64,000 bases of DNA. Origin: Podarcis melisellensis. Taxonomy: Eukaryota. The notes beneath the pieces are model-generated. The model saw only the letters and a list, made by a program, of their open reading frames with translations. It was not told the DNA's origin and made no database searches. The stretch is from assembly GCA_964234715.1 (NCBI GenBank), contig OZ174279.1, one strand, 5' to 3'. Positions 7,628-37,710 of this stretch are shown one piece after another. The stretch's first letter is position 1. Each line of letters opens with the position of its first letter. The translations under genes were made by a program, and so were the position numbers.

Positions 7628-8132
7628 AAAGCAGCCCTTGCCCATTCTCCCCACTGAAGATTTTCCTGGATAAGAGAAGTGCTTCCATCATGTATGGGTG
7701 CTTTTTTAGATTGTATCAAATAAAGCATTTTGAATCCTCCTTTTTTATATATACAGAAGGACTTGAAATGATTGCCTCTTGTGAAGGCACCCATTAAAAC
7801 AAAGCCCACAGTTTCAGTGTGTTTCTAACTGAGGTTAGAAAGCACTTCTCTTTGCTTTCTTGCCTGTTTTGCATTGCGGCATGGCTCCCAAATTCATGTT
7901 TAATTTGTGTTATTGACACATAGGGGCTGATCTGTGCTGTTGAAGGATAAAGGCTAACTCTGCTGTAATCCTAAGCATACTTACTGGAAAGTAATTTCCA
8001 TTGAAATAAATGGATCCTACACCTGAGGTAATAATTCAGGACTGAAGGACCAGACACCACTGGCATAAGCAATCAGCATCTTTCTTATGCCACTACCGAT
8101 CTTCAGGAGGGGGTGGAGTTGCGGGCTCACGA

Positions 8133-8315
8133 CCCGCCCACACTCTTGCGGGGCTGAGGTCAGCCCCGCGGGAATTGCAGGGAGTCCCCAGTCACCCCGC
8201 CCACGCTCCCACGAGGCTGAGGTCAGCCTCGCGGGAATCAGGGATTCCCCAGTCACACCCCCGCGCGCCAGCCAATCGGCTGGCGGCCGGGGCGGGCCTT
8301 CCAGAGGCCACATAA
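8133..8315 (+). promoter_or_regulatory. LTR-type enhancer/promoter: two ~62-bp tandem units plus CCAAT, GC box and TATA-like CATAA
   Basis: Units 8133-8195 and 8196-8256. Each has CCGCCCAC (Sp/KLF/EGR-like), a hairpin-palindrome centred on TGAGGTCA, GCGGGAA (E2F-like) and an NF-kB consensus (GGGAGTCCCC 8180-8189; GGGATTCCCC 8241-8250). Confidence 0.6.
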
Positions 8316-8403
8316 GGTCGGGGCAGCCCCCGGCTCGCCCCTTTTCTCCCTGGCTGCGAGCGCGATTTCCCACCCACCCACCCTTTAGGTTCCGCCATCG
8401 ACC

Positions 8404-8511
8404 TTGCTATGGGCTTCGGCTGGTCGCCGCTTGGGGCCAGGTAGGAATTTTTCCCATTTGGCTAATTGGCTGGTTCGGGAGCCACTTGGTTTTTCGCCTA
8501 CCTCGTAGCAA
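8404..8511 (+). ncRNA. Predicted structured RNA domain with an ENE-like U-rich internal loop
   Basis: AGGUAGG (8439-8445) pairs with CCUACCU (8497-8503). Two UUUUU runs (8448-8452, 8490-8494) face each other and are closed above by CC/GG. Outer helix UUGCUAUG (8404-8411) pairs with CGUAGCAA (8504-8511). Confidence 0.55.
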
Positions 8512-11215
8512 TTCGTCACAACTTTCCCGGTTGGCGGTAGGCATTGGCCGGGGTATTGTCATGCAAATGAGGTGGGGGGGAGGAGCGCCATCACCTCCCC
8601 CAAAGATTGAAGGGTAGTTCGTTAAAGGACTCCGAGGGGCGACGCCTCGTCCGAAACCTACGGAGGCTAGGGCCTAAAGCGCGCCCCCGAGCGGTAACCC
8701 CTCGGGGAGCGCCTAGGGATACGCATCTCGGGTAGCTCCCCCTGTTGGTGTTTAACCCTTCCCGGTTAGATCGGATAGTCGGTTAGGGGCCAATGCCTAA
8801 AGCCAATACCTCTCTTTCCTGTAATCAATAAAGTTGTGGCCATTTTCGCCCATTAACTTAAATTCTTGTGTCCTGTGTCTTTATTCATTACACCTGTGGG
8901 GGGGAGGAAATAGCCACGCAACACACTTTTATTTAGAAGAGATTGATGTAAGTGGCTTTTATTAAGCAAACATTACTGGGTTACAAGAGTACTGTATTTG
9001 ATTTTCAGAGGTGATGTGAATGGTTGTTGATGAGAATAAATGAGTGAAGGAAAATTGGGTGCTAGATTTAACCGGGAAGCTTTGCTCTGTGTTTATTTCT
9101 GTGTGCCTTTGCTAGCTTGAATGAGATTGTAGTGAAAATGAAGTATCAAGCTGTTGTTATGTAGATTCCCCCTTAAACACTGCTGGGATTATTGTTTGCT
9201 TTTACTAATAAAGTGTATAACATGCCTTATGTTGTCTTATGTTGCAGCTTTTGCTTTTGTTCTTTTGCATTATGTTGCAGCTAAGGATTGCCCTCTGGAG
9301 TGTTGCAGCTTAGTATAACTGCCGCTCTTTTTCTTCCTATAAAATTATGAAAACCCTTCACATCTCTTTTACCTACAGTAGATCTGTTGTATTTCAATAG
9401 GAGTCTGATAGTCAAACCATATCTCCCCAGTCATCTCTGAACAGAAAATGGTGAAGAGTTACTCATTCCAGGATTGTGTTTTAATTGAAAATATTGGACA
9501 TTAAAGGGGGGGGGGATGGAGAGACATAATTTTTGTAGTAGAGATTGCTCTAGACCTTGATGACATGAGTGATGAAATAGGCAAGGCAAAGCAACAGAAA
9601 GAAACTAGGAGGTGGAGTAGCATGAGGACTGGACTGAAATACAAGACCAGATTGATTCAGAGCTTGGCTGAGACAGGCCCAGAGAGGCCTCTGAAAACAA
9701 GGAACAGGGGGATATACTGATATTTTCTTCTGACAAGATCAATTGTAGGGATAACCTATTGACTTCTTCAGAAAGCCTCTGGTACTGAGTGCCATGGAGG
9801 ATCGGTAACTGCATTTTGGTCCAGATAACCTGATTCTTTCTAGGTTAGTACTTTATGTGTATAGTAAATTATTCTTTGTTCAGTAAAATAGAGTAAGGAA
9901 TCCCAAAAAAACTTCTTTCCAGCTACGTTAAAATAGCATATATATATATATTTAAAAAGTGGCAGCTCTTAATTATATGCAGCATTGGTGGAATCTTTCA
10001 CAGCCTGAGGATGTCCACATTGTGCTCTTTTATACACAGAGCTCACTTACATGCAGGAAATCACACAGTAGTTCCCAGCTGTAGAATATAACGTATGTTT
10101 GTGTGTGTATGTGTGTGTGTATTCGTGCAAATTTTCTGTGTGTATAAGTGATTTTAAAATTTCTTATTGCTTCTTCCCAAGAAACACAGACCTGTTGCAA
10201 ACCACTAGCAAAGGGTTAATGGCTTTGTGATTGTTTAGTGTGAGTGCTTGTAAAAGCTTATAGTGAGCAGTGAAAAAGCACCTGTTATTTCCCCCTCCCT
10301 CCCTCCCTCCCTCCCCCCCTTCCACATTTCAATAGCTTATGCATGTGGCTCTCATATAGGAATTCAGTATTGGAGCTCAATATCATGTTCACATGCTCTA
10401 GAGTGCTAAGGGCCTCTCTAGAATTCAAAAGGTAGTGACACAGAATCGCCCCATCACAGAGTGTGCAGTGAATAGCTGCAGGGTCTCAAAGCCTCTTGAT
10501 TTCTAAATAACTAAGCAGTTGAAGTTACCGTACTTCCCCCCCACCAAACCCAATTACAATGTTCAGCATCAAACATTCTATGCCTCCCTATCTTTGTGTT
10601 TCTGCTCCCTATCTTTGTGCAGCATAGATGCAGACACTTAGCTGCTGCACCGTGAAGCTAATTTTGTTATTTGTGGGCTGCTTTAAGCTATTTGAAGAAG
10701 GTGGAATCGTGCTAGCAACTTGGTATAAATATATCCCTATGAGCAAGGAACAAGACTGTAGCCCTTGCAATTTGGATAGGGCATGGTTGACATACCCTAA
10801 CCCCCACCCAAAAAAGAATTGGGAAGAGGTATCCATACTCTTCTCAGGCAAGTGGTGCCATAAAAGTCTATCGTAGGAGTCGACTCCATAGCACACAACA
10901 TCAAAGAAGAATATTGTGTTTCATCTTTATACTAGGTGTGTTCGTATTGCTGATTTGTGAGTTGAAAGGGAGGGTTTGTACAGTATTCTATTTTTATTAT
11001 TTTTGGAACTGCTGTCGTGTATGTCGTCCTGAGTGTTGCTCATAAAGGCAGCCTAAACACATTTAAAATAAAATGAAGTATTGGGAGAGTTAGGTTTTTT
11101 CACAGACTGGGCTAAACTAATTGAAAAACAGGTAGTTCATTACCAGCTGAGTAGCTTTTCAATAGCAACTTAGAACTATCCAGACCATTCTTTGTTATGT
11201 AGATATAACTATGCA

Positions 11216-23844: not shown

Positions 23845-24674
23845 ATAGAAGAAACCTTGCATGCCATAGATTGAGCCACATCTGGACTCCAGCCTTTTTT
23901 CTGCTCCTACAAATTTGCTTTACTCTAAGCTGCTCACTTTTACAAGAATAAACACTGCTATCCAATTACGGTATATGAAATAATATACAATTATGCTGAA
24001 ACACAGTATAGAGAATAATAAACAGAATCAGTTATTTGTTTATATAACCTACCATAGCCAGCATATGTAGCTGCAGAAACACTGGAAGATAAAAGTAGAA
24101 TAGGAACAAAGAATTTTTTAAACCACCAGTATATGTTCAATTTAGTAACTAAATTCAGGTTGCCCCCAAATGCACACTGAAAGCTCAGTGTTTTCTCCAT
24201 AACATGCTCGTTTTCCATCTGCTGAGAGTTTTCTGAAATGCGGGGCAGCCAGTCATTTGTGAGGCTATTCCATGTGGTTTGGTTTTTAAACACATAGAGT
24301 ACTTCTAAGTTGATGGCCTGGTTCAGGTAATTGTTTGAGGATTCATAAGCCACTGTTTAAAACAACAGGAATGGGCGTCAGGACTAGGAACAGAGAGGGA
24401 TTTAGGGAAGCATGAATTGTTTGGTTGCACTGGGCATGGAGTCTCAGGGGCGTTGTAGGGGGCACAACAACTATGATGTAGAATGGAAGAGGTAGGGGGC
24501 AGTGAATTTTGGCGTCGCAGATGGTATTGCTGAAATTTGAGACCCCCAAGGTCCACCACTTGTGATTCGAGGACCCTCCCCCCACGCTTGTGGACAAGAA
24601 AGACACATGGACACAGTCAAAACAAAAAAAATTCCTTCCAGTAGCACCTTAAAGACCAACTAAGTCAGTTCTTG

Positions 24675-24712
24675 GTATGAGCTTTCGTGTGCATGCACAC
24701 TTCTTCAGATAC
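24675..24712 (-). ncRNA. Second identical minimal hammerhead ribozyme on the minus strand
   Basis: gtatgagctttcgtgtgcatgcacacttcttcagatac is the exact reverse complement of 24859-24896. Confidence 0.85.
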
Positions 24713-24858
24713 ACTGAAACAGAAGTTTCGGTTCCAGTTACAGATAGGTAGCCGTGTTGGTCTGCCATAGTCAAAACAAAAAAAATTCCTTCCAGTAGCA
24801 CCTTAAAGACCAACTAAGTCAGTTCTTGGTATGAGCTTTCGTGTGTATCTGTTTCAGT

Positions 24859-24896
24859 GTATCTGAAGAAGTGTGCATGCACACGAAAGCTCATAC
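24859..24896 (+). ncRNA. Minimal type I hammerhead ribozyme (PLE-associated)
   Basis: Stem I GUAU (24859-62)/AUAC (24893-96); core CUGAAGA (24863-69); stem II palindrome GUGUGCAUGCACAC (24871-84); GAAA (24885-88); vestigial palindromic stem III (AGCU); predicted cleavage after C24892. Confidence 0.85.
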
Positions 24897-26231
24897 CAAG
24901 AACTGACTTAGTTGGTCTTTAAGGTGCTACTGGAAGGAATTTTTTTTGTTTTGACTATGGCAGACCAACACGGCTACCTATCTGTAACTGAAACATGGAC
25001 ACAGTATTTAAGGTTAATGGGCTACAAAAGGCCACAGCTTTATTAATTACAGCATGTGAGAGGTATTGGCTTAGGCATTGGAAAAAAACCACAAAGTTTG
25101 ACTCCACCCCTCAGGGAGGGGTGAGTCTAACAAGGGTTAACCACCAGTAGGGGGAGCCTGTTGATGCAAATACAACTGTAAGCTCTCCCCTGATGTCACC
25201 GGGGGTCGTGCCATGGCCCCCAGCCACAGCAGGGCATCGGACAGGATCCACGACCGCTGGATTCCTTTAACGGAGTACCCATAAAGGAAGGCAATTGCCA
25301 CCCCCCGCCCTTACATACACCAACAACAGATTCCAATGCCTAACCGCCACTTCTGGGAACTCTTTCCCCTCCTCTTGGCTCACTGCTTGCTGTCTTGGGC
25401 ACAAAGATCCTGCCTTGTACTTAGCCAGAGTTCCCAGTTACAGCTGATCTGGTTAGATCTACCTTAAATGTACATTAACAAACCAGGAAACCAACAAACC
25501 ACGTTGAGATCAAGCCCCATAGCAGGGCATGTAGGAGAGGGAAGCTGTTTGCCCAGGGCTCCTGAGGCCTGAAACTGGGTACTGCCAGCATTTTGAAGAC
25601 ATTACTTTTTAAGCAAGTCATTTTACTGCTCTGTAGATTAAGTGCTAGTCCTGGCTCTCTTGGTTTTAAATGCTGTTTTAAATGTTTTTAATACTGGTTT
25701 TAGCGGTTTTTTAAGTGCTGGTTTTAGTATTTCTTCATGCTATCCTTAGTGTTGTGGTGCTGATGTTTTTAAAATAGATATTACAGGTTTTTAAAAATAT
25801 GTTTTGTTGGCTGCTCTGAGCATCTCCACCAGAGGGGGAAAGCAGGCTATAAATTTAACTATCGATAAATAAAAACCAATGGTGCTTGATTATTTCTATG
25901 GTGCAAGTCTTTCTATTTTATATATGCAGGCTATTACTTAACTTTAAAAACCATTCTGCTCAATATTTTTTTATCTCTAGAAAATGTGAATTCTTTTTTC
26001 TGCTGTCTTAATTCAGGTCTCAGGGCAGTTCACAGAATAAAATCAGAATATAAAACCACAAAATACATAATCAAAAAAGAACACCAACAACCCAATAATC
26101 GCCCAACACATTTTAAAAGGCCATAGGATGTAGGTTAAAGACATCACCCCCTGCCCTGTGCCAGGTGGAGAGAGGCAGTGGCAGGACCCTCAGGCTTTCA
26201 GCAGGGTGATACTTGCTGGGCGGCAGCAGCA

Positions 26232-26877: not shown

Positions 26878-29706
26878 TCCACCAAAGTGTACTTACAGGA
26901 AAATCCAGCCAAGGATGTCATGGGGTTTTGGAGGACAGGCACCCAATAAGTATTACTTACAGATACACTTCACACATCTTGAAAGTATGTAAGGACAGTA
27001 ACAACTCCAGACCCCAACCATTTCACCAAACAAATTTCTTTTGGTAATTGTAATGCAGTTTCTTATTCCATTAATTGAAAATGTGCTGGGAAAAATGGGA
27101 GAAAATTTCATCACAGGACTAGAAGGAAGGAAGGGGGCTAGTTCTCTGGAAATTGCTTTCTTCTCCCCTTCTGCCTTAGGACACTCTCACAGCAATTTTG
27201 CCGGGTCAATTTCTTTCCTGAAAGAGACTAATGGAGACTTGCAGTGACTTTGTAATACAACTGTTTACTTACAGATGCACGATTGGTCAGGTATTTGAAG
27301 GGTGCCAAAAGAGGCACATCGTGGAGAATCGTAGTCCCACACACTCCTGGAAGTCCAAGTCAGCCAGTCACAAGTTTCACTGACCTTTTTGTTCCCTAGC
27401 ATTACTATGCCTGAGAATGTTTTGACATGGACGAGCCCACACTCATTCACATCTCTGCTGAACAACAAATCTCACTGCCTCAATGCCAGCACTAGATTTA
27501 GATTCCTGACACTTACGCGGTCAATTGACTTTGATGCAGCAGCAGGCTGGAATTAGACACAAAATTGGCTTCATCAGATGGGAAATATTTTATACTAGTC
27601 CTGGATTCATTCAGCTGATAAAGGTCTGAGAATATGGTTTTGGTAATGACACTGGGGATAGAGAGGCACAAAGTAAGGCTAAAATCACTAAATCAAACCT
27701 GTTATGGGAAACCCCAGCCTTCTCGTCATAGATTATTAATATTGCAGTCTCACTACACATTTGTGAGTGGCCACCACAATTATAAAAGGCTGTACAGACA
27801 GACTGCTACAGAGACTACATGGAAACACATCAAGTTGGTAAGACTATTTGTTTCTTTAATTTGTGGTTCTATGTGCTCAGTTGGGAATATGCCCCACTCA
27901 AGGCCTGGGGCCTTGTCTTCAAGTAAATACACAGAGGGCTGGACTTGCTAAGGACTCCATGCTCTTTAGGTACCATGTCCCAAACACTGCTCATCTTCCA
28001 TGAGAAAACATTCTTTATGTATTTCATTCTTTGTTTTTATGTGATATTTGTTTGGATAAATAAACACTCCACCCTTCAATTTTAGTAATGTAAATTCAGA
28101 AGGCAAGGATACAGAGAAAAGTAAAGCAGAATACAAAAAGAAAAAGCTATAAAATGCAATAGCAGAATTATAAAACAAGCCAAACAAGATGAAACAAGAT
28201 AAAAGCAGCAATAAAATCCAACAACATAAAAAAACTTTGATGTGGTTATAAAACATCATCCTTGTTCTTTTAGTTTAAAAGTTCAGGAGAAAAGAATTGC
28301 TTTAATCCACCACCTTTCTAAAGTATCAAACCTTTCTGGGGAAGAAGGTGTTACCTGTGAGGGGCAGCACCACAGAAGAGGCTGTCTCCTCACTTGCTAC
28401 CCACATTACTTTTCAAATAGGAATAGGGGAGAGATTTCTTCAGGTCAGTTTTTCATGCTAACCGAAAGATCTTTCCAAACTTGTAGTTCTCCAAATTTTG
28501 TGATGTGGTTCTGTAAATAAGTATGTGTAAAGAGAGAGAGAGAGAACATATATTAGGAGGAAGTATGCCTGACACCATGGATGTGAGTAAAAACATTGTT
28601 CAAAAATGCATTATGCCTAGCTTGGAGGCTAGCATGCCCTCAACTCTTCCACGTTGATGATGGTGGGCCACAGTATCAATCCATACTGTAGTGGGCCCAA
28701 GCTTGGCTTCCAGCATATGAGCTGAGTGGCCACATAGTTAGGTGGTCCATTGTACCATTCCTGCCCTAAGCCATGCTGAACTGTGAATGCTGTAACCCAT
28801 AAAGGTGAGGTCATTTAAACCCATTTCCAGTATTCAAGGGATTCTCGCGTCCCCAACTTCCTGCCCTATCTTGTGAGCACAACCAGAGCATGGACAACTA
28901 TAGCCAGAGTGTATCTCTCGAAAGAAACAGAAGGACACACACCAACCAACTGTATTTCTCTCATTAAGCAAAAACAAAAACAAGGCAAGTGCATTTGTAA
29001 TTCCATAGCATATTTCATTCAGTTGTGTGTGAAGTACCATGAAGTACCATATTGCCACTAAATCAAAATGTCGACAGTGCCAAGTGTTTCTTTAATGGTC
29101 CCACTTTGCCAAGCTCAGATCTCTATTTTTTTCTGGTGAACCACTCTGGTAGACCAAGAGTTTGGAAAGACACCTAGTTCTGAGCATTTGCATTCAAGCC
29201 GTTCTGCCCAGTTCTTTAAAATAACCTTGTGCTGCCTGCTAGTTCCATGCAACTGCACCATACAGTAGGGTCTGCTAATGTTAAAGGGTATTACAATAGT
29301 AAGCTATAATAACAAGAGAGGATTGTGAAAATAAAATCCTGCTTTGTTTTAAATCTGTTGCTGTCAGCAGTCACAAAGCTGAAAAGAATGTAGTCTTGAG
29401 GTTTTATGGGAAATGAAAATGTTTAACAAATACATCAATGTGCTCGCTTTTTTCTTTTTCTGTTTTCTTTTCAGTAATTAATATAGTGCATCTTCTTTCA
29501 AAGTCACTGTGTAGTCTGAGATTTAAAATATCAGGGGGCTTGCTCTGTTTTCTTTTTTTGCCCTGATACTGCTTTTACATTTGGGACATATTTGTTCTTT
29601 CTATAGCTAAATTTCAAGATTGAAGAATAACATGCCAATTTTCATATTACCAGCATGAGAAGTATATAATAACAGACACATATTTAAACTCATGCACAGT
29701 GTGTAT

Positions 29707-35865: not shown

Positions 35866-36754
35866 ACTCCAAGTCTTTCTGTGACAGTTCACACATACAG
35901 TCATAAATTGATTTACCTACGTACATGTGTAAACCATTCGTTGCACTGGTATCCTCCCATTTCTTCCACGTGTTCCTGACCAATTCTTTATTTAGGATCA
36001 TCCTTATTTAAGTTCTGTGGGTTGAAATAATGCCTGGTGTTGACAGTCTGAAGGTGCAGAATTAGTTGTAACATAGAATGTGATGCTTTCTTTGTGTCTG
36101 TCAAAAAACAAACAAACCCATGTCTCTATTAAGTATATTTGAAAATGACAGCTGGAAGATGAATGTGATGGTCATATATGATGGAGTGCTCAGACTTTGG
36201 TGGATTTTATTTTTATTTTATTGACATATTTGCCTTAAATGATTAGCTAGCTTTCCTCCCCTGTCAAATAAAACGTTTTTGGACTTCACTTAGTCTGGGG
36301 AAAAAATTAAATAGAGATGTCTTGGCAAATACCAACTGTTTTATTGGAGCAGAGCGGTGTTGTTAACGATATTACAGTTATCACAGTGTCAGTCTTTCCA
36401 TTATAAACCCCATTTTCAGAATTTTACAGCTTGGTTGTAAAAGCCTGTCAGAAGTTGAAAATGGGCAAGCCAAGGCTCTGTGTGGGAATGGAGTTTTTTG
36501 AATCTGCGTTTTTCTGGAGGTTCTTGGGGTTCTTTTAGGTAGAGCTCTTTGGATTTTGGTACCATTCAGCGTTGAACTGTTGAACCATCTTGAAAAACCA
36601 GTTGAAATCATTGGGATCTCTGCCTTTGAGTGCAATAATGTGAAACTACCCGAGTAATAATATACCAAGTGCATAATTTTATAATCCATGTTGTTGATCT
36701 GGAGCCAATTTTTCTCTTCACCTTTTTAAGGTTTCGTTTTTCTTCTTCCTGCAG

Positions 36755-37449
36755 CGGCCTTTGAGTCCTTGCTTCGCTTTGCTGAGAACCATACCACTTC
36801 TCTGTTTGAGACTGTCTACAGATCCATGTCAAAGGAAGCAGCAGAGCCTGTCAAAGAGCTCTTTACAGACATCTCTCTCTACCTCTTGGGCGCTCAGACC
36901 ACAGTGGAAAGTGTCCTTTTCCGGTTCTTCGACAGCCTCTTCCCTTTGGTTTACAGCCGCCTAATCAACCCAGGCATGGCTAGTCTGTCAGAGGAGTATA
37001 CAGAGTGCCTGCGGCTAACGCGGCAAGATATAAATCCATTTGGACTCTGTTCTAAAGAAGCAGTTACAAAGTTGGAAAAGTCTCTTTGGGCAAGCAGGAC
37101 ATTCAATCAGGCCCTGGGTATAGGCATTGAAGTACTGAACGCTACAGAACATGCCACGTTGACAAAGGAATGCAGCAGAGCCCTAGTGAAGATGCAGTAT
37201 TGCCCACATTGCCAAGGTCTGACTTTGATCAGACCCTGTGAAGGATATTGTCTCAATGTCATGAGGGGCTGTTTTGCCAGCATATCTGAACTGGACTCTC
37301 AGTGGAGGGAATATATCTATACCCTGGAGTATCTCACTAACGAAATGGCTGGATCGCATGATCTAGAAGCAGCACTTTTGGGTATCCGGAATTCAATCAA
37401 TGACGCCATCTTGCATGCCCAGCTGAATGGACCCCACCTGTCTGCAACT
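36755..37449 (+). CDS. Internal coding exon (exon-3 equivalent) of a glypican-5-like gene (GPC3/GPC5 subfamily)
   Basis: Translation AFESLLRFAENHT...FFDSLFPLVY...ECSRALVKMQYCPHCQGLTLIRPCEGYCLNVMRGC...AQLNGPHLSAT carries the glypican cysteine pattern and closely resembles GPC5 (ECSRALLKMQYCPHCQGL...KPCMGYCLNVMRGC). Acceptor tttcgtttttcttcttcctgcag|C at 36754/36755 (phase 1); donor ACT|gtaagt at 37449/37450 (phase 0). The 695-bp length matches GPC3/GPC5 exon 3 as I recall it. Symbol left blank because orthology (GPC5 versus a GPC5-like paralogue) is unresolved. Confidence 0.95.
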
Positions 37450-37710
37450 GTAAGTATTGTGTTCAGATTTGTTTTCAACTTCCTGCTGCTACTTTTAACC
37501 TTTGGTGTGTGCATTGTCTCTAACTATTGTTTACTACTGCTTGTACAAATATCAGTTCTTGAGGGGGCCTTCTTCCTTTTTCCTTTCTCACATGCTTATT
37601 GATATTAGGCAACTGATAAAAAGCTCACAAGGAGGAATCTTTCAAAAGGAAATGAAGAGACTTCTTGAGGAGGAGTATGTGTAAATCAGAATGTTAGTAG
37701 TCATTATAGT

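Follow-up and report, generated by a model that had tools for sequence, protein, structure and literature searches.

The window analysed here, 64,000 nucleotides of the Podarcis melisellensis genome, contains a hairpin with two exactly opposed U tracts inside a retroelement terminal repeat, and the question it raises is whether the RNA of this element could clamp its own poly(A) tail in the manner of an ENE. According to PMC7583470, what defines an ENE is a stem-loop whose internal loop is rich in U and adjoins G-C pairs; the PAN ENE forms five U-A-U triples, and more than 200 ENEs are predicted, including ones in stickleback fish retroviruses and in the transposable elements of slime mould, fungi and plants, about 10 of the predictions having been confirmed in reporters. 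The plant ENEs are mostly double (PMC7583470), and 3-5 consecutive triples are typical (PMC4836648, excerpt). In plants and fungi, ENEs are embedded in the LTRs of some elements, at the 5' as well as the 3' end (PMC13541005, excerpt), and the Evade ENE, which needs its U tracts and flanking G-C pairs, stabilises the retrotransposon RNA and raises mobility (PMC12501189, excerpt).

The host element

The hairpin lies in an isolated repeat whose features, all on the plus strand, are as follows.

8117-8923 (+): lone retroelement terminal repeat (solo LTR or solo A-B repeat), 807 bp, CpG-rich
8104-8116 (+): purine-rich tract directly 5' of the element, possibly polypurine-tract-like, possibly flank
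8133-8256 (+): two tandem 63-bp repeats (Tandem Repeats Finder, 2.0 copies, 85% matches; also BLAST), putatively enhancer-like
8272-8276, 8289-8296, 8311-8316 (+): CCAAT box, GC box and TATA-like word of a putative promoter (Pol II consensus)
8827-8832 (+): AATAAA with a GU-rich stretch 35-50 nt downstream (to 8880), predicted as a probable poly(A) site

The observed/expected CpG ratio is 0.72-0.86 across 8117-8806, compared with 0.09 in the flanks and 0.26 window-wide, and the GC content also rises sharply. This CpG retention points to a young insertion, in which case the intact motif plausibly mirrors the master element. No second copy of the whole element was found in the window.

The first-pass annotation had described the element as LTR-like, for which the CA end and an inverted hexamer speak; LTR status is not established, as the element starts with A, not TG, and has no duplication. 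The ends are inverted hexamers (that at 8118 matching the end at 8922), each bordered by A. The flanks at 8111-8123 and 8917-8928 are weakly inverted as well (GTG/CAC). Judged from their sequence, such inverted ends and flanks may point to the action of a recombinase more than to that of an integrase. No target-site duplication was found for any pairing of starts at 7900-8199 with ends at 8915-8934, and the combination of TG...CA termini and a 4-6 bp duplication that marks an integrase-type solo LTR (ERV or Gypsy) was not observed. The element is possibly a mutated or truncated integrase LTR, and the purine tract at 8104-8116 is consistent with a truncated 3' LTR. A short inverted repeat with arms of about 10 bp (8061-8094, by eye) lies just upstream of the element.

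The CCAAT, GC and TATA-like words suggest a start site near 8340-8345, and palindromic words in the 63-bp repeats presumably resemble nuclear-receptor/AP-1 and NF-kB sites, by eye. Two earlier statements about the 3' part hold: AATAAA is present at 8827, on the same strand as the hairpin and 324 nt 3' of it, and there is no genomic A-tract, the longest A-run between 8504 and 8925 being 3. The motif would be about 100 nt from the presumed cap and about 350 nt from the tail, an arrangement that counts against an ENE.

A 182-codon open frame (8069-8617) gave no Pfam match and was treated as non-coding, and no SGNH-hydrolase or other coding remnant was seen by eye beside either copy of the element. 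A glypican exon is present at 36730-37602 (+) (Pfam PF01153, E 9e-78), with the element 28 kb upstream on the same strand; no earlier glypican exon was found in the window. The position of the element is probably intronic and sense to the glypican gene, and its promoter-like part or its AATAAA could, judging from these signals, initiate or shorten host transcripts.

Anatomy of the hairpin

The pieces previously named in the hairpin were all found letter for letter where they had been placed.

8404-8411 / 8504-8511 (+): outer helix, 8 pairs, one of them U-G
8412-8438 (+): side hairpin of a three-way junction, seen in minimum-energy folds; the centroid keeps its base only
8439-8445 / 8497-8503 (+): lower (A-minor) stem, 7 Watson-Crick pairs, two G-C pairs closing it beneath the loop
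8446-8453 (+): internal loop, 5' side, consisting of AA (8446-8447), U5 (8448-8452) and C
8490-8496 (+): internal loop, 3' side, consisting of U5 (8490-8494) and a 2-nt CG bulge (8495-8496)
8454-8489 (+): upper stem-loop of 3 bp, a 2x2 loop, 5 bp and a weak apical hairpin

When 8439-8503 is folded alone, each pair of the lower stem has a probability of 0.72-1.0, and nine of the ten loop U's are unpaired at 0.87 or above, the U at 8490 being at 0.78; positions 8446-8452 are unpaired at 0.91-1.0 in the isolated fold. The upper stem-loop reaches 0.71-0.75 in isolation and about 0.5 with the outer helix, 7 of the 8 pairs of which have probabilities of 0.9-1.0 in the 8404-8511 fold and 0 in folds from 8340. 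The letters of CC (8453-8454) and GG (8488-8489), taken earlier as the base of the upper stem, are correct; the register in which they had been paired is 2.8 kcal/mol worse than the favoured one, 8454-8456/8487-8489 followed by 8459-8463/8480-8484, which is slipped by one base. The upper stem adjoining the loop is just 2-3 bp, which counts against an ENE.

In the isolated fold the opposed U tracts in a stem-loop agree with how single-domain ENEs are defined in the literature, in line with the earlier claim of ENE geometry. Two G-C pairs close the lower stem and are separated from the 5' U tract by the AA. Pairing of this AA with the opposite U's is a possible alternative, 4.0 kcal/mol worse. 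An AA between the G-C pairs and U5 is not known from the PAN and MALAT1 layouts and is atypical. There is only one U-rich loop, the second loop being a 2x2 UU/CU, so the hairpin is not a double ENE (dENE).

Rarity and stability

An ENE descriptor was composed with the motif already known, and specifies two U-runs 12-80 nt apart, a G-C-closed lower stem after spacers of 0-3 nt and an upper stem of at least 2 bp. At its two stricter settings, the sole match on both strands of the 64-kb window is the site at 8439-8503. The strict setting (U5, 7 bp) matched none of 150 dinucleotide-shuffled windows and none of 5000 shuffled elements, and the middle setting (U4, 6 bp) gave 0.027 matches per shuffled window and 2 in 5000 elements. 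The loosest setting gave 3 matches in the real window against 0.17 expected from shuffles, an excess in real DNA which indicates that the shuffle null is optimistic.

The stability of the fold is ordinary compared with shuffles (z of -1.08 for 8400-8515, -1.82 for 8439-8503 and -1.60 for 8404-8511); the opposite strand gave -2.49 and -2.56. Rfam had no match at the gathering score across the whole 64 kb, and with the threshold relaxed to E 10 there were weak miRNA hairpin matches alone (five in a scan of 8000-9000 and one in a scan of 8390-8530) and no ENE.

Folding within the presumed transcript

Two further features bear on whether the hairpin would form in the RNA of the element.

8345-8351 (+): pyrimidine stretch competing for the 5' strand of the lower stem, pair probability 0.91-1.0 in the 8340-8560 fold
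8438-8446 (+): splice-donor-like 9-mer overlapping the lower stem, boundary 8440/8441, 7 of 9 positions matching the consensus

The probability of the lower stem is about 0 once the RNA begins at or before 8354, and 0.29-0.69 for starts from 8360 onward (0.6-0.7 in most of them); in all five whole-element folds it is at most 0.02. The stem is lost because, with an early start, 8345-8351 captures its 5' strand while its 3' side is captured by 8536-8541 (competition probability 0.7) or by a G-U hairpin. From the presumed start, forcing the hairpin costs 5.7 kcal/mol and forcing the entire junction with the outer helix 12.2. Since triple helices are not accounted for in the folding energies, binding of the tail might repay the 5.7 kcal/mol.

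The 10-mers at 8440-8449 and 8536-8545 are one mismatch apart, and each can pair with 8497-8502. In the predicted folds, this near-identity hints that the RNA could switch between folding the motif and folding the domain downstream of it.

A rival explanation is that the lower stem serves to conceal or uncover the donor-like site at 8438-8446. U1 bound to the upstream repeat would then suppress its poly(A) site and the alternative fold would free the downstream one, as in foamy viruses, the U tracts being spacers or binding sites for U-rich-binding proteins that aid U1. The score of the 9-mer is equalled by 69 of the 6730 GT sites in the window, which places it in the top 1%, and both strands of the stem have alternative partners (8345-8351 and 8536-8541). 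The site is also 5' of AATAAA in a terminal repeat, as in the foamy virus R region, where an excerpt of PMC3694450 describes a donor sequestered by structure upstream of the poly(A) signal and acting as a switch. Such a switch leaves the two exactly opposed U5 tracts unexplained, and the donor-like site is paired in every predicted fold, with no exposed state. Furthermore, the related frog sequence CR1-2_XT (see below) has U where the element has A at 8500, so its partner, which falls outside the visible alignment, would be expected to be A and not the U of a donor. We consider a U1 switch unlikely; it is compatible with an ENE, and the two are not exclusive.

The proposal of an ENE made in the first-pass annotation is partly supported. 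Geometry, rarity by chance, strand and a position 5' of a poly(A) signal kept in both copies speak for it; in the RNA presumed to be transcribed, other folds win over the hairpin, and a donor-like site is buried in the stem.

Copy 2 and the shared downstream domain

One relative of the element was found in the window, and it shares a structured domain with the element.

24560-25349 (-): copy 2, an older diverged relative of 8532-8923 alone (nhmmer E 4e-23 over 8532-8874)
8531-8806 (+) and 25349-25070 (-): structured domain common to both copies, closed by helix 8539-8545/8792-8798

Copy 2 ends before the motif, as had been noticed earlier: significant similarity begins at 8532. An end-to-end local alignment suggested that it reaches the motif, and this was rejected, four of five targeted tests being plainly non-significant (best 16/474 tiles). 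Copy 2 keeps AATAAA and helix 8539-8545/8792-8798. It is split by an insertion at 24612-24994, and the end of the element is matched beyond the insertion.

The shared domain has about 275 nt, lies just before AATAAA and shows 64% identity (218 of 338 columns). Its joint fold has an energy of -57.9 against -42.5 +/- 5.8 for shuffled alignments, one in 100 of which was as low; just seven pairs exceed 0.4 in both separate folds, and these form helix 8539-8545/8792-8798. The two copies thus support, at the level of predicted folds, a plus-strand RNA structure in the element family, outside the motif. Rfam gave no match to 8531-8806. The domain could itself be a ribozyme, a packaging structure or a poly(A)-control structure.

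Inverted and tandem repeats that are 98-99% identical make up the insertion at 24612-24994. Each repeat has a minimal core resembling a hammerhead (24863-24888, +; 24708-24683, -), and we take the repeats to be similar to Penelope-type terminal repeats; Rfam found nothing in it beyond miRNA-like hairpins. The sequence at 28763-28828 (+) weakly resembles the part of the element around AATAAA (E 0.15) and is perhaps a third, very old fragment.

A further alternative is that the motif is a structured cis-element with another job, such as packaging, dimerisation, export or recognition by reverse transcriptase, its loop being a protein site or closed by U-U or A-U pairs and never taking a third strand. 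Packaging-type signals are usually located at about the distance from the start that is presumed for the motif (some 100 nt), and the motif sits in a three-way junction that is followed by the second conserved structured domain. Symmetric U5/U5 tracts with flanking G-C pairs and a bulge are, however, a specific ENE signature, and the occurrence of a related strand in a LINE 3' UTR is more in keeping with a function directed at the host than with one peculiar to the element. We regard another job as rather unlikely.

Searches for relatives and a possible CR1 link

A search with nhmmer for further copies of the motif in the window returned the motif itself and two others at E 11 and 18. The words with the GGAAGGAAT run at 24639, 24793 and 24932 were rejected as copies, since they belong to the Penelope-like insertion and are without a partner strand. 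In bacterial and archaeal genomes there were six exact pattern matches, none of them with the architecture or with similarity to the window, and these are attributed to chance; plasmids gave one match, at E 0.2. A protein-level search for family copies through spurious translations found no matches, and two matches in a representative protein library were rejected as unrelated tandem-repeat proteins.

The first-pass annotation had suggested that a similar module occurs in the 3' UTRs of some reptile and amphibian CR1 LINEs. Support was obtained for the 3' half of such a module, in that the 3' UTR of Xenopus CR1-2_XT has a U-run followed by a word that matches 8497-8504 at seven of eight letters (supplement of PMC4316615); this is one of the 11 passages inspected among 12 occurrences of the 3'-strand word in file 2 of that supplement. 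The 5' half is not visible in the trimmed alignment, from which its authors had cut an ambiguous upstream part (PMC4316615, excerpt). The supplements of PMC5786205, PMC4255032 and PMC4054807 contain no match to the motif. In literature full texts no two words of the motif co-occur, and the four one-word matches listed are unrelated by title. The open-licence literature, a body that lacks the main ENE surveys, yielded no ENE in reptile elements or in CR1 LINEs.

The recurrence in CR1 also bears on whether the hairpin has any function. A chance hairpin, or a passenger piece from another retroelement, masked by competing folds, would suit the z values of -1.1 to -1.8 and the suppression in context, the in-window relative that does without the motif, and the optimistic shuffle null. 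Chance does not readily give the perfect agreement of all seven lower-stem pairs and both U5 tracts, which no shuffle of the element (0/5000) reproduced, or the recurrence of half of the motif in a frog CR1 consensus. An absence of function appears unlikely as well.

A proposed poly(A) clamp

The motif is a real feature that is ENE-like by shape, and its geometry does not establish a function. By analogy, and on predicted folds, it is probably (about 0.55) a single-domain ENE of the PAN type in the transcribed part of a retroelement terminal repeat. This reading is favoured by the exact geometry with its 2-nt bulge, by the sole strict match and the empty shuffles (0/150 and 0/5000), by the absence of any A-run longer than 3, by the precedents for ENEs in LTRs and by the near-identical 3' strand in CR1-2_XT. 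It is weakened by the out-competed fold, the z values near those of shuffles, the short upper stem, the AA and the lack of an Rfam match.

In the proposed mechanism, the RNA of the element would be cleaved and polyadenylated near 8850 and its tail would loop back over about 350 nt, so that five As could enter the loop as U-A-U triples while others of the tail bind along the lower stem, in its minor groove. Deadenylation would slow, and the intronless RNA would persist for export and reverse transcription. Since the hairpin is marginal in its context, binding of the tail would have to pay for the fold, and we propose that the clamp is conditional. In a complete element the repeat and its motif would be at both ends of the RNA, and it would be the 3'-proximal motif that acts.

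A wider version of the PAN-type reading is that the hairpin, side hairpin and outer helix together constitute an ENE module that is portable among the retroelements of amphibians and reptiles, found in CR1 3' UTRs and in the terminal repeats of an unrelated element; we hold this to be possible, though doubtful. The entire module may occur in the CR1 3' UTRs of frog and turtle. The unrelated element would possibly be an Ngaro tyrosine-recombinase retrotransposon, and no ENE in Ngaro elements is on record in the literature searched. With split or direct repeats, the context-dependent fold would arm the clamp of the downstream repeat only, limiting protection to read-through, replication-competent RNA. 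If this is true, host transcripts could also gain poly(A) protection from solo copies, of which there would be thousands.

ENEs are already known from viruses, MALAT1 and the transposons of plants and fungi, and an ENE in a vertebrate retroelement has precedent. The one record of a vertebrate mobile-element ENE found in the open-licence literature is that of the stickleback retroviruses (PMC7583470, excerpt). If confirmed, the present hairpin would bring amniote retroelements into the range of poly(A) clamping and supply a new loop variant, with an extra AA and a three-way junction. Should CR1 3' UTRs have it too, a neglected part of a very common vertebrate LINE family would acquire a function, and this would imply that a decay shield has been exchanged between classes of retroelement. 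High-copy families would ease tests of covariation and activity.

Comparison with known systems

The foamy virus R region shares with the element a sequestered donor-like site 5' of the poly(A) signal in a terminal repeat and differs in that no opposed U tracts feature in the switch as described in the excerpt of PMC3694450.

The order of parts in Ngaro elements is A1-ORFs-B1-A2-B2 (PMC8547959, PMC9210276 and PMC6681497, excerpts), solo A-B repeats are described (PMC8547959, excerpt), and the Xenopus A and B repeats are of 236 and 152 bp (PMC9210276, excerpt). The element resembles a solo A-B repeat in being an isolated repeat without a TG start or a duplication and in its two-part make-up, copy 2 having just the downstream part. 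The window holds neither a full element nor coding sequence that would prove an Ngaro origin, and the Xenopus repeats are shorter. The absent duplication and the two-part make-up are consistent with derivation from an Ngaro tyrosine-recombinase element as a solo A-B repeat. The part at 8531-8923 may resemble lizard Ngaro B repeats.

The MALAT1 ENE has a 2-nt bulge and a short P1 (PMC6379651), and the hairpin shares with MALAT1 and MEN-beta a short lower helix, G-C pairs under U5 and a 2-nt bulge at the base. Unlike theirs, its U tracts are without a C/G interruption. It also lacks a second U tier, an encoded A-rich tract and a tRNA-like element, ARAGORN having found no genes in the window. Lacking these MALAT1 features, the hairpin is not a blunt-ended triplex.

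From the ENEs of transposons in plants, fungi and slime mould and of stickleback retroviruses, the last compared by mention only, the hairpin differs in its reptile host and, in the case of most plant ones, in its single loop. It shares with them a place within a retroelement, for some of them in terminal repeats, and the proposed role of shielding the RNA of the element from deadenylation, which has been shown for Evade.

Compared with PAN, the hairpin has the extra 5' AA, a weak upper stem, a three-way junction below it and about 350 nt to the tail. The two are much alike in length, at 65 nt for the hairpin and about 79 nt for PAN, and have a U-rich loop able to take five As, and in both the host RNA is intronless and encodes no A-tract, the poly(A) tail being, or here being predicted to be, the third strand.
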